A stretch of 64,000 bases of DNA from Dehalococcoidia bacterium (GCA_963555985.3 OY820591.1:2176001-2240000); one strand, 5' to 3'; counted from the first letter of the stretch, positions 9,915-60,338 are shown. Made by a program: numbers and translations. Notes: generated by a model not told the origin, from the sequence alone.

Positions 9915-10059
9915 GGAGACCTGCGCGTAATCCCGGATTCCGTCATTCCAGGCTTGACCTGGAATCTCGTCCGGAATTGCGGGCTCTCTGGTCGGAGCGA
10001 GATTCCAGCGTTCGCTGGAATGACGAGAGCAGCGGGAATGCCAATTTGCAAAGGCCTCC
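9915..10059. mobile_element. ~145-bp MITE with IS5/IS1106-like ends and a GTCATTCC palindromic core
   Basis: Ends GGAGACCTGCGCGTAA / TTTGCAAAGGCCTCC; ~100-bp core nearly identical to 13950-14050. Confidence 0.7.
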
Positions 10060-10187: not shown

Positions 10188-11123
10188 ATGACCTTTCCCC
10201 GCTACCCCAACCCCGCCCGCCGCGCCAAACTGCTCCAAGCCCACCAACTCCGGCAACAAGGACTCACCCTCCGACAGATCGCCCAGGAGATGGGCTGCGC
10301 ACACTCCACCGTCGCCGCCTACCTCAAAGACTTCGAACTCTTCCGCGCCGACTTGATCCAGGAACTCGCCGCCGACCAACTCGTCGTCCACCTGCTCCAA
10401 CTCGCCGATCTCAACGACGAACACCACGACCGCCGCCGCGCCGACATCCGCGAATTGCGCCTGCTGCTCACGGCCGTGCCCCACATCCGCCGCGACGAGT
10501 CCGAACGCACCCAAGAACTCGTCCAGGGCGGCGTCAGCGTCGACCGCTACGGTCAACGCTACCCCAGGCCCGAACGCTTCTTCCCCCCCACACCCGAAGA
10601 GATCGAGCAGATCAACCAACCCCACGCCGAACCGAACGCCGACCTCGACCCCGACCAAGCCCTCGTCTGCACCCCCGAACCCGCTCGAACAGCACCGAAC
10701 AGCACCGAACAAGAACTTTCCGCTTCCCCTCTCCCCCCCTTGCAGGGGAGATGTCCCGTAGAGCCTGCCCCCGCGCACGCGGGGGACAGAGGGGGGGCGC
10801 CGCCCGCCAAACACGCCGAACACACCGACGAACCCGCCCGAACAAAATCGAACAAGCCCGAACAAGAAACCGCCCAAACCCCAGCCCAGGACGGCGAATC
10901 GGCCGAAACCGGCCAGATTTCCCCCGACCCCGCCCTCCAACAGGCCATCGACGACATCGACCGCCGGCTCAAAGACATCCTCAGCGACCGAGACTGGCTC
11001 AACGACTACCCGTCCCGCAACCCCCGGCACCCCGAACGCCGGAAAGCCCTGCGCCTCGTCGAGCAAAAGCAAGCCCTGCTCGCCCAACTCCACGCGGAAC
11101 CGGAGGCCCCCGACGCAGCCTGA
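10188..11123 (+). CDS. Uncharacterised N-terminal HTH protein with embedded DNA repeat arrays
   Basis: RQQGLTLRQIAQEMGCAHSTVAAYL HTH; AGGAG RBS. Confidence 0.8.
   Translation: MTFPRYPNPARRAKLLQAHQLRQQGLTLRQIAQEMGCAHSTVAAYLKDFELFRADLIQELAADQLVVHLLQLADLNDEHHDRRRADIRELRLLLTAVPHIRRDESERTQELVQGGVSVDRYGQRYPRPERFFPPTPEEIEQINQPHAEPNADLDPDQALVCTPEPARTAPNSTEQELSASPLPPLQGRCPVEPAPAHAGDRGGAPPAKHAEHTDEPARTKSNKPEQETAQTPAQDGESAETGQISPDPALQQAIDDIDRRLKDILSDRDWLNDYPSRNPRHPERRKALRLVEQKQALLAQLHAEPEAPDAA
10676..10863 (+). repeat. Two arrays of 4x CGAAC at exact 10-bp spacing inside the HTH gene
   Basis: CGAAC ends at 10680/10690/10700/10710 and 10833/10843/10853/10863. Confidence 0.85.
10726..10797. repeat. REP-like palindrome inserted in frame in the HTH gene
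   Basis: CCCCT..GGGGAGATGTCCCGTAG..GGGACAGAGGGGG matches the reverse complement of intergenic 39138-39187. Confidence 0.75.
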
Positions 11124-31146: not shown

Positions 31147-31531
31147 CTAGGGCCTGTTTACACAACCACGAGCGCGGTCGGCCCGCACGAGCGCTGGTCT
31201 CGAGGCTGAGCCTCGGCGCTCCCGTCCCCGCCCTCCGCAACCGAGCCGAAACCGGGTATGCTCAGAACATATACGCGCACGAATCCAATGGGAGACCGCT
31301 GTGTCCCACAAACGACTCGCTCCAAACCTGAACAGTGCTGGACATGCCCGGATTCTCCTGGAAAAAATCTGCCCGAATCGAGATCAATCCGGACAGATCT
31401 GGACAAATCTGGACAAATCCAGACCCTCGAACGCACGATCCTCAGCGCTCGCCAGGAGATCCGCTCAATTCCTCCGAAATTCTCCCGCCAAACAGCGCCG
31501 ACGCACTTCGCGCAGTCTGAACAGGTCCTAG
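31147..31531 (+). mobile_element. Non-autonomous element with IS5-like TIRs, SOS-box-like promoter and 10-bp phased repeats (copy A)
   Basis: CTAGGGCCTGTTTACAC / GTCTGAACAGGTCCTAG (14/17 inverted match); TATGCT-C-AGAACATATACG; (TCTGGACAAA)n. Confidence 0.75.
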
Positions 31532-43393: not shown

Positions 43394-43437
43394 GCGGGTG
43401 GATGCGAGTGTGGCGGTGCGGAAAGTGTGAACGTGAC

Positions 43438-44604
43438 CTAGCTGAAATAGCGGCCCTGGATGTTTCGGGCGATGACCATTCGCTGGATTTGGTTTGCGCC
43501 CTCGAAGATCTGGAAGATCTTGGCGTCTCGCATCCACTTTTCGAGGGGGAGGTCTTTCATAAAGCCCACGCCTCCGCAGACCTGGACGGCATCGGTGGTG
43601 ATCTTCATTGCCGCGTCTGAGGCGAATGTCTTCGCCTTGCTGGCTTCCTCAAGGTTGAAGGGTTCTCCGGCGGCGGCCATTTCGCCGGCTCGCCAGGTGA
43701 GCAGACGGGCGGCGTCGATGGCGATGTCCATGTCGGCGAGCATGAAGCCGACGCCCTGGTGCTCGATCAGGGGACGGCTCATGGTCTTGCGCTCGCGGGC
43801 GTAGTCGGCGGCGTATTCGAAGGCGGCGCGAGCGAGGCCGACGGCGAACGCGCCGATCCAGGGGCGCGTGGCGGCCAGCGTTCCCAGCGCTCCGCGACCG
43901 CCGGAGCGGAAGTCGGGATCGGGATCGCCGAGGCGGTTTTCGAGCGGAATGCGAACATCGTCGAAGGCGAGATCCGCGGTGTGGGAAGCGCGAATACCCA
44001 TCTTGTCCCACTTCTTGATCTGGCTGAATCCGGGCGCGTCGTTGGGGACGACGAAGGCGGAAACATCGCGCCAACCCTCGGAGTCCGACTCGCGCGCGAA
44101 GACGACGGTGAGGTCGGCGATGCCGCCACCGGTGATGAAGCGCTTGGTTCCGTTGATGACGTATTCGTCGCCGTCGCGGACGGCGCGCGTCTTGATCATG
44201 CCCGCGTCGGAGCCGGCGTCAGGTTCGGTCAGCGCGAGTGCGCCCAGGCGCAGCTTGCCGTCCTCGGAGGTGCATTCGGGGAGCCAGCGGTCGGCCTGCT
44301 CGGGCGTGCCGATCACCGAGATCGCAGTTGCGGCCAGACCGCTCACCTGCGTTCCCAATGCAATACCCGCGCAACCCCAGGACAGCTCTTCCGCCGTGAT
44401 CATCGCGGTGATGCCCGGTTCGGCCGCCTGACCTCCGAGGGCGACGCCGGTGAGTCCGATCTCGGCCGCTTTCTCGGCGACGTCCCAGGCGTACTCGTTG
44501 CGTTCGTCGTACTCCATCGCCACCGGGCGCACCTCGTTGGCTGCGAACTCGTGCGCGGTGCGCTGCACCATGCGGTCGGCTTCGGTCAGTGAGAAGTCGG
44601 TCAT
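43438..44604 (-). CDS. Acyl-CoA dehydrogenase
   Basis: ALTEPDAGSD, NGTKRFITGG, KMGIRAS, RDAKIFQIFEGANQIQR. Confidence 0.95.
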   Translation of the reverse strand: MTDFSLTEADRMVQRTAHEFAANEVRPVAMEYDERNEYAWDVAEKAAEIGLTGVALGGQAAEPGITAMITAEELSWGCAGIALGTQVSGLAATAISVIGTPEQADRWLPECTSEDGKLRLGALALTEPDAGSDAGMIKTRAVRDGDEYVINGTKRFITGGGIADLTVVFARESDSEGWRDVSAFVVPNDAPGFSQIKKWDKMGIRASHTADLAFDDVRIPLENRLGDPDPDFRSGGRGALGTLAATRPWIGAFAVGLARAAFEYAADYARERKTMSRPLIEHQGVGFMLADMDIAIDAARLLTWRAGEMAAAGEPFNLEEASKAKTFASDAAMKITTDAVQVCGGVGFMKDLPLEKWMRDAKIFQIFEGANQIQRMVIARNIQGRYFS

Positions 44605-57553: not shown

Positions 57554-57807
57554 GCTGCGTCTCGTTCCCCCCGCCGGCGCTGAGTCCGACCGCTCGGCCT
57601 TGGTGCTGCCTAGCATCCAAATCTATGCCGGTCGTCTCCCCGCCCGCAAACGGAGTTTGTCACCCCGATTAGCCAAGCGTAAAGCGTCCCGCCCCTCGAT
57701 CGCCAGAGCGATCCGGGCTCCGCTTCACGGCGATAGCGCGCAGCCGGATCACTGGCGCAACACCGGCGGTCTGGTTACTATCGAGTCAGCGCAAAGCCGC
57801 GTCGCGT

Positions 57808-57883
57808 GGGGCTGTAGCTCAGCTGGGAGAGCGTTTGACTGGCAGTCAAAAGGCCGGGGGTTCGAGTCCCCCCAGCTCCACCA
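57808..57883 (+). tRNA. tRNA-Ala(GGC)
   Basis: GGGGCTG acceptor with G3:U70, anticodon loop CTGGCAG, GGTTCGAGTCC, encoded CCA. Confidence 0.97.
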
Positions 57884-58209
57884 AACTCCCTAAAGTCAAG
57901 GAATCCCGACCGGCACTCTGCTGAGAGCATGCACCGCCATCGGCGGAATCCATACGAGGAACAGGAAGAAAAGGATCTTCAGGCTTCAGGGCGTCCTGGG
58001 TCTCGCGCTCGAGCAACTTCAGGAGGCGGAACCCCTAATCAACGGCAACGTCCTCCCTTTTGAAGGGCGAGGCCGGGATCGGCAAGACTCACCTGCCGTG
58101 CAATCTTGCCCGTAGCCGAGTCGACGCGGGCCTGCCGACCGCTCTGCTCATGGGTCAGCGATTTCTGATCAAAGACGACCTTTGGGTCCAGGCGTTGCGG
58201 CAACTGCAT

Positions 58210-58572
58210 CTAGAGCTTGTTCACGCAAAACGAAGGTGTCGCCTGCGCAACAGTGAAGCCTCGGCCAAGCGCTTGACTGCCGGCGTTCATCGCAGTACGT
58301 TTGTACTTATCATCTCCGAGCACGAAGCGAGCCTCGTCATGCCCGCCCCCAGCCTTCCCCAACCTGGAGCCCCGGCCTGTTCCAAAGTGACCGGGAACTT
58401 TCCGAGACCTACCCAGACTGACCAACGCCAACCAATCCTAACCATCCTGAACGCACGATCTCCCGTAAAACACTGGGCATCGCATGTTTTCGAGCCGGAA
58501 CAAAAAAATTCTCCACAGCACTACCGCGCGAACACCCGCAACGCCCGCGCAAGTAGTGTGAACAGGCCCTGG
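58210..58572 (+). mobile_element. Non-autonomous element with IS5-like TIRs, SOS box and 10-bp phased repeats (copy B)
   Basis: CTAGAGCTTGTTCACGC / GTGTGAACAGGCCCTGG; AGTACGTTTGTACT; GAACGCACGATC identical to copy A. Confidence 0.8.
58273..58313 (+). promoter_or_regulatory. Sigma70 promoter overlapped by a LexA-type box
   Basis: TTGACT-N17-TACGTT; palindrome AGTAC-GTTT-GTACT (58294-58307); second -10 TATCAT. Confidence 0.65.
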
Positions 58573-59015
58573 GCGCTCTTGAACCCGAACAGTCTCTGGG
58601 TGCTCTCGAAGCGGCAGCGCAAGCCGCGATCGGCCCGTTCGAACCGGTCCGGGATCCGATCTGGACGCTCTTGATGTCGCTCGCCTTCATCTACCTGGCC
58701 ACCCGGGTGCCCTTAACGTTGGGCGCCTCCAGCCCGTTCGATGCCTGGCTGCTGACGCTCTGGTCCGGTCCCTCCCTGCCCTGCCGCTGGCGGCTTCCGC
58801 ATCGACCAGCCGGTGCGCCCGCGCGGCGGGACGGGACAGTCACCGATCTGGAGTTGCTCCACCGCCTCGCTGCCCGGTACTCCCTGATAGTCATGTACAG
58901 GTGCCACGCTGTGGGAGGTCGAGTCTGTTAAGCTCGTACCCTACTTGCTGACAGCCTTGTGAAGAGCCCCGGCGCGCAGCAGATTCGAGCCGTTGCCGGA
59001 GCTACGGGTGGAGCT

Positions 59016-60338
59016 ATGGAGATCAGAAACCTGATCATCGACGACCGCGAGAGAGGAATCTTCCGGGTACACCGGTCGGCCATGACCTCCGACGAGTTAT
59101 TCCAGCGGGAACGCGAGCTGATCTTCAACCGCTGCTGGATCTACCTGGGGCACGAGTCGGAAGTGGAGGAACCCGGAGACTATCGCCGCCGCACGGTGGC
59201 GGGACGGCCGCTCTTCTTCGCTCGTGGCAAGGACTGCCAGGTCCGAGTATTCCTCAACACCTGCCCTCACCGGGGCGCCTTGATCTGCCGCCGCGACATG
59301 GGAAACGCCGAGGTCCTGCAGTGCTTCTATCACGCCTGGACGTTCAACACCCGCGGAGAGCTGATCGGCGTGCCCGGCGAAGACGCCTACGGCCCCGCGT
59401 TCGACCGCAGCGAACTGGGCCTGAAGCAGCCGCCCAGGGTCGAAAGCTATCGCGGCTTTATCTTCGTGAGCTTCAACCCCGACGCCGACGACCTGATCAC
59501 CTACCTCGGAGGGGCCAGGGAATACCTTGACCTGATCGAGGACCAGGTCGACGAAGGGATGCGAGTGGTCGCTGGTTCCAACAAGTACACGATCAAGGCC
59601 AACTGGAAGTTGCTGGGGGAAAACAGCTTCGACGGGTACCATCTGGTGCCGACGCACCAGACATACCTCGACTACATCAGCAGCCTGGGAACCGACGACA
59701 GCGGAGAAACACTGGCTGCACGTCCTCCCGGTGTGGCGAGAGCCTTGGGCAACGGACACTGCGTGGCGGTGAACATCGCCCGCAACGGCCGCCCCATCGC
59801 GCGCTGGCACCCGCTGTTCGGCGAGGAAGCCAGAGAGCCCATCGCGCAAGTCCGCCGGCGATTGGTGGAGAAGTACGGGGAAGAGCGCGCCTACCAGATG
59901 GCCGACACCTCTCGAAACCTGCTCATCTATCCCAATCTGGTCATCAACGACTTTGTAGCCATCACTATCAGGTACTTCGAACCCCTGGCCCCCGACCGCA
60001 TGGAGGTGACCGCCTGGCACCTGGCCCCGAAGGTAGAATCGGAGGCCATGCTGACCACCCGGTTGGACAGCTTCCTGACCTTCCTCGGGCCGAGCGGTTT
60101 CGCCACCCCCGATGACGTGGAAGCGCTGGAATCATGCCAGGCCGGCTACCGTGCCACCGAGCTCGAGTGGTCCGACCTCTCCAGGGGTATGCTGAACCCC
60201 GAGCCGGGAACATCGGACGAACTGCAGATGCGCGGATTTTGGCGGCAATGGCACGCCCACATGCAAGGCTTGAGCCACGCCAATGTTCAGGACGGCCAGC
60301 CTCTGAAAGCAGAAGCCGTGCTGGCAACGGACGACTGA
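59016..60338 (+). CDS. Rieske ring-hydroxylating oxygenase alpha subunit
   Basis: NTCPHRG..CFYHAW, NWKL..EN..DGYH..TH, TPDD. Confidence 0.95.
   Translation: MEIRNLIIDDRERGIFRVHRSAMTSDELFQRERELIFNRCWIYLGHESEVEEPGDYRRRTVAGRPLFFARGKDCQVRVFLNTCPHRGALICRRDMGNAEVLQCFYHAWTFNTRGELIGVPGEDAYGPAFDRSELGLKQPPRVESYRGFIFVSFNPDADDLITYLGGAREYLDLIEDQVDEGMRVVAGSNKYTIKANWKLLGENSFDGYHLVPTHQTYLDYISSLGTDDSGETLAARPPGVARALGNGHCVAVNIARNGRPIARWHPLFGEEAREPIAQVRRRLVEKYGEERAYQMADTSRNLLIYPNLVINDFVAITIRYFEPLAPDRMEVTAWHLAPKVESEAMLTTRLDSFLTFLGPSGFATPDDVEALESCQAGYRATELEWSDLSRGMLNPEPGTSDELQMRGFWRQWHAHMQGLSHANVQDGQPLKAEAVLATDD

Follow-up and report, generated by a model that had tools for sequence, protein, structure and literature searches.

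Element B is a short insertion in the window, a 64,000-nt stretch of a Dehalococcoidia genome (G000:C1:2176001-2240000; genome of 3.33 Mb, 65% G+C, assembly 96% complete). It is most likely, at a probability of roughly 0.78, an old and now immobile MITE (miniature inverted-repeat transposable element) from the IS5 family, which carries a lineage-specific module made of a promoter, a phased array and a conserved core. A first-pass annotation had described B as a mobile cassette that splits a nucleoside triphosphatase (NTPase) gene, spreads LexA-repressed promoters together with phased protein-binding arrays, and represents a candidate for an undescribed system. The insertion and the mobile character of the element are confirmed here, the other parts of this description only in part or not at all. 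The features are collected in Table 1.

The clean splitting of the NTPase gene is borne out by an intact homolog in a relative of the same family (G014), a P-loop open reading frame (ORF) of >911 aa with weak NACHT and AAA matches. When translated, the left flank of B (58060-58212) aligns with residues 362-412 of this ORF. The right flank read from 58572 places its first residue on 413, with a local alignment over 415-430 that none of 500 shuffles equaled. In the homolog the two flanks thus join directly (412|413), so excision of 58214-58572 (359 bp, comprising the element and one target copy) restores the reading frame, with zero residues lost or gained. The left part of the gene is 72% identical at the DNA level to G014:627401-627664, and paralogs of the two gene flanks are absent from G000.

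B is bounded by 17-bp terminal inverted repeats, each read together with its target copy, that are complementary to each other at 13 of 17 positions. The window contains three matches to this end repeat at ≤3 mismatches where 0.17 are expected (0/100 shuffles reach 3), the other two being both ends of a second element, copy A. The right end of B matches the left end of copy A (31147-31163, CTAGGGCCTGTTTACAC) at 15 of 17 positions, as reported previously. No Pfam family is matched by the ORFs inside B and no transposase ORF is present in its body; the ORFs around it give weak P-loop matches and nothing else. Terminal repeats, a target duplication and ends in common with copy A are thus consistent with the non-autonomous transposon and precise insertion initially proposed. 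The internal motifs listed by the first-pass annotation (promoter, palindrome, ATG, ACC series and two words) were all found in place, while a third element that it named copy C was looked for and not located.

The origin of the ends is revealed by a census of the repeat. In G000, the 17-mer CTAGGGCCTGTTCACAC has 25 matches at ≤2 mismatches compared with 2 for a reversed control, and the repeat is carried by 21 of the 31 genomes of the family. The A subfamily has repeat pairs 382-406 bp apart and comprises 11 full copies (91.6-95.9% identity to the consensus) and 2 partial ones. Among the 12 A-type copies, 6 have CTAG on either side and the rest have one target copy mutated, and no match extends past CTAG. 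In four relatives (G018, G024, G006 and G021) the same repeats lie 770-895 bp apart and enclose two overlapping-frame ORFs, which match DUF4096 (“putative transposase of IS4/5 family”, 1.3e-24), DDE_Tnp_1 (2.5e-13) and DDE_Tnp_1_2 (2.3e-11). Seven of the eight repeat-bounded elements fetched are flanked by CTAG...CTAG with no longer repeat beyond, an arrangement that fits duplication of 4 bp or of the central TA alike. Judged by its repeats and ORFs, the partner in sister genera is an ordinary IS5-family insertion sequence (IS), which we take to belong to the IS427/IS1031 subgroup of ISfinder, and A and B are its MITEs. B is not a new kind of transposon, the repeats being those of this ordinary IS. 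In G000 the A subfamily has 13 copies, and the B subfamily has 1 full copy and 2 partial relatives. A solo IS5-type end (CTAGGTCACGTTCACAC) also occurs in the window at 43425-43441, beside sequence resembling repetitive extragenic palindromes (REP), without a partner end or a module.

The insertion is old, as the occupied left junction is spanned by a contig of ~95% identity from a different study (run X4). The left target copy reads CTGG in that strain, and the ancestral duplication may thus have been CTGG/CTGG. The gene that received B was already a relic: it corresponds to no more than residues ~331-430 of the homolog, in two frames with a frameshift between them near 58060-58070. Beyond ~58625 the translation turns into the C-terminal part of a different, TrbL-like protein, whose G014 ORF matches TrbL_4 at 2e-6. 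In G014 this TrbL-like homolog lies 470 kb from the NTPase homolog and on the opposite strand. With a truncated, frameshifted NTPase relic running into a TrbL_4-like fragment, the site of B looks like a decayed integrative/conjugative island beside a tRNA-Ala gene. The stretch that follows the tRNA (window 57884-58950) is a mosaic of dead genes in which the frameshifted NTPase fragment and the TrbL_4-like fragment are recognizable, and a co-oriented Rieske-oxygenase ORF starts near 58959, rightward of B. As it sits in dead DNA and no cognate helix-turn-helix (HTH) gene is found in G000, B is probably inert and without function at its present site.

The interior of B probably has a different history from its ends. 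Outside the ends, blastn detects no similarity of A to B; however, the two elements have a common layout of promoter region, phased words, GAACGCACGATC, partial palindrome, AAATTCTCC and right end. In B, GAACGCACGATC is located at 58449-58460 and AAATTCTCC at 58506-58514; the former has one further exact occurrence in the window, in copy A (31429). The likeness of A and B that had been anticipated beyond their ends thus consists of these two words and the layout. The array of B has ACC at 58411/21/31/41 and its best self-match at lag 10. The core CACGATCTCCCGTAAAACACTGG has 23 nhmmer matches in G000 at E<0.05, and the exact pattern GATCKCCMGYAAAACACKG occurs at least 60 times in at least 59 loci titled Chloroflexota or Dehalococcoidia. 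Among the matches listed, 80 pattern loci were fetched, of which 21 from other phyla are single matches lacking the surrounding layout. In the 60 nt upstream of the core, the best lag is 10 in 53 of 60 sites among the matches listed, compared with 70 of 1000 random 60-mers of G000. The words vary by subfamily (CTGAAAAAAC, CCGAACA, CTGAACG, CTTCCACC, and CTAACCA in B), and a variable stretch, an A-run and often a repetition of the word follow 3′ of the core.

Both IS5 repeats lie within 600 bp of the core in none of 60 sites from other Chloroflexota genomes, and one does so in 8, again among the matches listed. The claim that the transposon family spreads phased arrays accordingly holds insofar as B carries one, but the modules are mostly not part of a MITE. 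We infer that the interior of B is a copy of a lineage-specific module rather than IS-derived sequence. The module appears to be ordered as a sigma-70-type promoter with a LexA-type box on its -10, an array of 10-bp words, a partly palindromic 23-mer, and an A-run. The core palindrome of some modules has its loop (GTAAAACAC) in the opposite orientation with respect to array and A-run (G000:C1:192565-192607, 1568995-1569036, 360107-360154 and 367490-367531; loci L032, L037 and L074). Summed contig depth rises ~10-fold over the core (window 58444-58477) in all four sequencing runs X1-X4. Many contigs match only the core stretch, which indicates that it is highly repeated in the communities of these runs.

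The promoter-like sequence of B points rightward, and its -10 is overlapped by a perfect palindrome. An ATG is present at 58339-58341. The recA promoter of G000 has the same geometry, TTGACA-N17-TACATT with the box CGTACATTCGTTCC over the -10, as do 7 other modules (AGTACATTTGTACG and variants). Of the 8 strict promoter-plus-box sites in G000, 7 lie 171-243 bp upstream of a core match. Upstream regions of recA in the family contain a strict G[AT]AC-N4-GT[AT]C in 17 of 30 cases, mostly CGAACGCGTGTTCT. The other 13 match at 7 of 8 positions, including TGTACATTTGTCCC (G041) and GTACATTCGTGC (G011); these two boxes and the one of G000 recA are almost the same as the palindrome of B. GAAC-N4-GTTC is the established Gram-positive LexA motif (PMC3323433), and the recA boxes of the family are, by their sequence, of this Gram-positive type. 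A lexA gene is present in G000 (C1:~182400-183230, minus strand). LexA control of the promoter of B is plausible, since the palindrome overlaps the predicted -10 exactly as in the G000 recA promoter. The motif guessed earlier, G(A/T)AC-N4-GT(A/T)C, therefore agrees with the recA promoters but not with lexA, which has no strict box upstream. Immediately upstream of a gene resembling dnaX (DNA polymerase III gamma/tau; G000:C1:1266050-1266080), a TAATAT -10 is followed by a further box (CGAACGTAGGTACG), so that this gene is possibly another member of the SOS regulon.

The amplified A subfamily is different. Its promoter is weak, with a poor -35, and is followed merely by GAACATATAC(G/A)C instead of a proper box; the candidate operator stretch of copy A is GAACATATACGC. 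Consequently, while the palindrome of B fits the box of the lineage, the claim of a family that spreads LexA-repressed promoters depends on B only.

In the proposed history, an IS5-type transposase would have moved B and the A subfamily in trans by cut-and-paste and would then have been lost from G000. LexA would repress the promoter of B, and DNA damage would release transcription rightward, across the array and beyond the right end of the element, towards the Rieske-oxygenase ORF. Proteins would bind the array along one helix face, the candidates being paralogous HTH proteins that have the same kind of array in their genes.

Several observations weigh against this account. No IS5-type transposase is found in G000 by tblastn with the ORFs of the relatives or by PF01609 and PF13358 (IS630-type) searches of the assembly, leaving both the A and B subfamilies orphans there. 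B has 1 full copy and 2 partial relatives in G000, a right half at C1:92734-92902 and an interior at C1:1892291-1892545. Its target copies are unlike each other (CTAG and CTGG), and the empty-site joint is not seen in any sequencing run examined. The -10 of B, TACGTT, agrees with the consensus at 3 of 6 positions, which is why a consensus promoter scan of 58100-59100 returned 0 promoters. There is no strict box upstream of G000 lexA. The box pattern is not enriched, with 3 occurrences in the window against 1.74 expected and 184 in G000 against ~280 under an independent-base model. In the 25 modules of other genomes tested for a box, those with the strongest A-skew among the matches listed, a strict box lies upstream in only 5 and downstream in 0. 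Finally, the internal ORF of B is not similar to the HTH family introduced below (hhalign 0.5%).

This family is represented in the window by the gene at 10188, which has ~20 N-terminal paralogs in G000 (tblastn). Its product has 83 relatives in the protein collection, and the named ones are all Chloroflexota hypothetical proteins of 175-346 aa. Members begin with a conserved HTH followed by helices, and a linker that varies connects this N-terminal region to a short C-terminal one. The conserved ‘RT-PN-EQ’ stretch of the family corresponds to three CGAACA words with a 10-bp period (window 10600-10700; alignment columns ~305-330); these are read in three frames, so that the conservation is at the DNA level. 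Other paralogs contain TTGGAC nine times, TGAAACA five times, or TCTGGAC, the word of copy A. Several HTH genes are preceded by TTGAC-N17-TAnnnT promoters with G(A/T)AC-N4-GTAC boxes. The array of A has 16 9-mers in common with the HTH unit at C1:2268028 (99th-percentile background 6), and the arrays at C1:966124, 1707871 and 2327998 have 13, 9 and 13 in common with the 10188 unit (background 3-4). For the array of B, the best figure with any HTH unit is 3, against a background of 4. The first-pass annotation had tied the 10188 gene to B; that link is not upheld, as the CGAACA words match other arrays and the array of B is at background.

The AlphaFold model of the HTH protein (pLDDT 70, disordered linker) has a generic HTH fold. 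Foldseek gives no match in the PDB at E≤0.001, and a wide fold search returns generic HTH folds only, the best being the DeoR DNA-binding domain (Z 8.6). Descent of B from an HTH gene by internal deletion was considered and dropped, the comparison of the ATG ORF of B with the family by hhalign giving a probability of 0.5%. Two HTH units, G000:C1:581071-582110 and 2572067-2573122, are 99.8% identical over 1056 bp, with borders in REP-like repeats and no IS5 ends. REP-like hairpins (GTCATTCC..GCG...CGC..GGAATGAC) cluster around HTH units and modules at many G000 loci, including window 9930-10040.

These genes are the basis of an unlikely alternative, in which the modules and the ~20 HTH genes of this Chloroflexota family would together form an undescribed DNA-damage-induced system for the spread, packaging or replication of such units. 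The HTH protein would recognize the 10-bp phased words in its own gene and at many satellite loci that have these words but no HTH gene. Elements A and B would count among these satellites, caught in addition between IS5 ends and, if the reading is true, double parasites.

A more doubtful reading makes the module itself selfish. Here the ~1-kb HTH units would be autonomous. Modules without an HTH gene, among them A and B, would be non-autonomous derivatives that keep in cis the array recognized by the HTH protein, and A and B would have acquired their IS5-type ends secondarily or from the array word. The right terminal repeat (GTGTGAACAGG) does resemble the array word CTGAACA. The ~20 paralogs, with their near-identical 1056-bp pair, the phased array at or after the 3′ half of every HTH unit examined, and the words common to HTH units and HTH-less arrays (the array of A and the C1:2268028 unit align by blastn at 88% over 50 nt, E 3e-13) also argue for it. 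However, the HTH proteins are generic HTH domains with helices and no catalytic domain, 0 of 20 HTH units have IS5 repeats at both ends, the 1056-bp duplicate borders in REP-like repeats without clear ends, and the ORF of B is unlike the family. An IS5 transposase fully explains the precise insertion of B, its CTAG-type duplication and its repeats.

It is improbable that the module serves in cis as a start site for packaging or as a site resembling a replication origin, switched on by the SOS response and linked to large-terminase-like genes. Binding of a protein to phased repeats inside or beside its own gene is familiar from pac in terS and ori in O, and the arrays lie inside the coding regions of the HTH genes. 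A gene resembling the terminase large subunit (PHROG_2 1.6e-26) is present in 5 copies in G000, and there are weak small-terminase leads for the HTH proteins: PHROG_309 scores 1e-4, Pfam Terminase_5 misses the cut-off with 0.008, Atlas clusters that contain Terminase_5 score 0.88-0.90, and a 45-residue match to the G20C small terminase has a Z of 7.0, level with many HTH folds. These similarities, however, cover the HTH motif only and tie with sigma-4, LuxR, DeoR and ParB folds, and the HTH and terminase units are not adjacent by coordinates.

The least probable reading, in which the product of the module is a structured non-coding RNA induced by the SOS response, would account for the conserved upstream promoter, the invariant 23-mer and a core able to form a hairpin (73% of cells pair, compared with 28-48% when the partner is slid), but Rfam finds only the tRNA in 57700-59000, RNAalifold gives 0 consensus pairs over 47 aligned modules, covariation is absent from the core hairpin (466/500 shuffles reach the observed pairing), the 3′ arm is lacking in about half of the copies and the loop is inverted in some. 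Since the loop is inverted in these few copies, a DNA site fits better than RNA, and the array and core are most likely DNA sites for proteins.

Table 1. Features of element B, its insertion site and related sequences (window coordinates).
Feature	Position (strand)	Basis or remark
HTH gene, 311 aa	10188-11123 (+)	Pfam HTH_23 1.4e-6; three phased CGAACA words in own coding region
Copy A	31147-31531 (+), 385 bp	MITE; same terminal repeats, CTAG on both sides, 13-copy subfamily
tRNA-Ala(GGC)	57808-57883 (+)	ARAGORN; Rfam tRNA 70.1 bits; decayed island starts just after
Relic P-loop (STAND/NACHT-like) NTPase, left part	57963-58213 (+)	G014 ORF residues 331-364 and 362-412; ends with left target copy
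Element B including both target copies	58210-58572, 363 bp	Insertion within NTPase relic
Left target copy CTAG	58210-58213	Sequence; CTGG in ~95%-identical strain (58212 A>G, run X4)
Left terminal inverted repeat with target copy	58210-58226 (+)	CTAGAGCTTGTTCACGC; same repeat as IS5-family ISs of relatives
MITE body of B	58214-58568 (+), 355 bp	Bounds from homolog alignment and loose ends at 58569 (runs X3, X4)
Promoter-like TTGACT-N17-TACGTT	58274-58302 (+)	TTGACT 58274-79, TACGTT 58297-302; points rightward
Perfect palindrome AGTACGTTTGTACT (AGTAC-N4-GTACT), LexA-box-like operator	58294-58307	Over -10; fits G[AT]AC-N4-GT[AT]C
Five phased 10-bp words	58411-58460 (+)	tACCcagact, gACCaacgcc, aACCaatcct, aACCatcctg, aACGcacgat
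Conserved core GAACGCACGATCTCCCGTAAAACACTGGG, imperfect hairpin	58449-58477 (+)	nhmmer and pattern matches
A-run then TTCTCC, AAAAAAATTCTCC	58502-58514 (+)	Sequence; A-run at same position in alignment of 47 modules
Right terminal inverted repeat with target copy	58556-58572 (-)	Reverse complement CCAGGGCCTGTTCACAC
Right target copy CTGG	58569-58572	Sequence
NTPase relic, continuation	58573-58630 (+)	..ALEPEQSLGALEAAAQAA; G014 ORF residues 413-430
TrbL/VirB6-like conjugation-gene fragment fused to NTPase relic	58623-58790 (+)	84% DNA identity to G014:160835-160992

Other repeats are also found in G000. IS30 is present in 9-10 copies, and a 1.45-kb repeat, located at G000:C1:216306-217760 (L138) and about 8 times elsewhere, contains an ORF resembling Uma2-family nucleases (1.7e-15). 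A 2.2-kb unit occurs in five copies that are 88-96% identical (G000:C1:106901-109166, L137; 1688246-1690464, 1952547-1954697, 2029165-2031031 and 664594-666733). In each, a 118-aa gene overlaps the start of a 473-aa large-terminase-like gene (Terminase_6N 4e-8; PHROG_2 1.6e-26), and the part of the unit containing the 118-aa gene has >20 further occurrences at 72-90% identity.

If the box of B works, elements of this sort would, on transposing, bring further genes under the control of the DNA-damage response. The module combines a strictly conserved 23-mer with subfamily-specific 10-bp words and is matched by an expansion of HTH genes whose coding sequences contain the same arrays. It is encountered in many uncultured Chloroflexota genomes, and no described counterpart was found in the literature searched, which excluded most subscription journals. 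Within the same body of literature, neither a bacterial MITE carrying a LexA-type operator nor any account of these Chloroflexota repeats was found, and the main text of a 2024 review of prokaryotic MITEs mentions neither LexA nor SOS (PMC10969869).

Among known systems, the closest are the IS5-family ISs with a two-frame DUF4096 and DDE transposase, and their MITEs, with which B and A agree in the 17-bp repeats, the CTAG target and the short duplication. Both elements also resemble typical MITEs in size and lack of coding capacity, and the A subfamily in its multi-copy state. B differs from IS5-family MITEs in that its interior appears to be an unrelated module instead of a remnant left by deletion of the IS, and in the absence of a partner transposase from G000.

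The Correia elements of Neisseria offer a second comparison. These are small elements bounded by terminal repeats, with sigma-70-type promoters and a site for the DNA-bending protein integration host factor (IHF), that alter the expression of neighboring genes (PMC10969869). B is likewise small and bounded by terminal repeats, with a predicted sigma-70-type promoter and putative sites for DNA-binding proteins. It uses another transposase family and target, has a LexA-type box on the promoter, and replaces the single IHF site with a phased array. The effect on neighboring genes is described for the Correia elements.

In BrickBuilt, a MITE of Porphyromonas gingivalis, a tandem repeat array and promoter elements also lie inside the element (PMC4596501). 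The array of BrickBuilt is a 23-nt minisatellite without spacers, while the modules described here have 3-9 degenerate 10-bp words, and an SOS box and a conserved core are not part of BrickBuilt as described. The Gram-positive LexA boxes (GAAC-N4-GTTC; PMC3323433) have the same palindromic 4-N4-4 layout and the same position over the -10/+1 as the box of B. The predicted box of B differs in having GTAC half-sites instead of GAAC/GTTC and in being placed on a mobile element rather than before a repair gene. Promoter-bearing MITEs are thus already known, and the module of HTH gene, array and core is the part that may be new.

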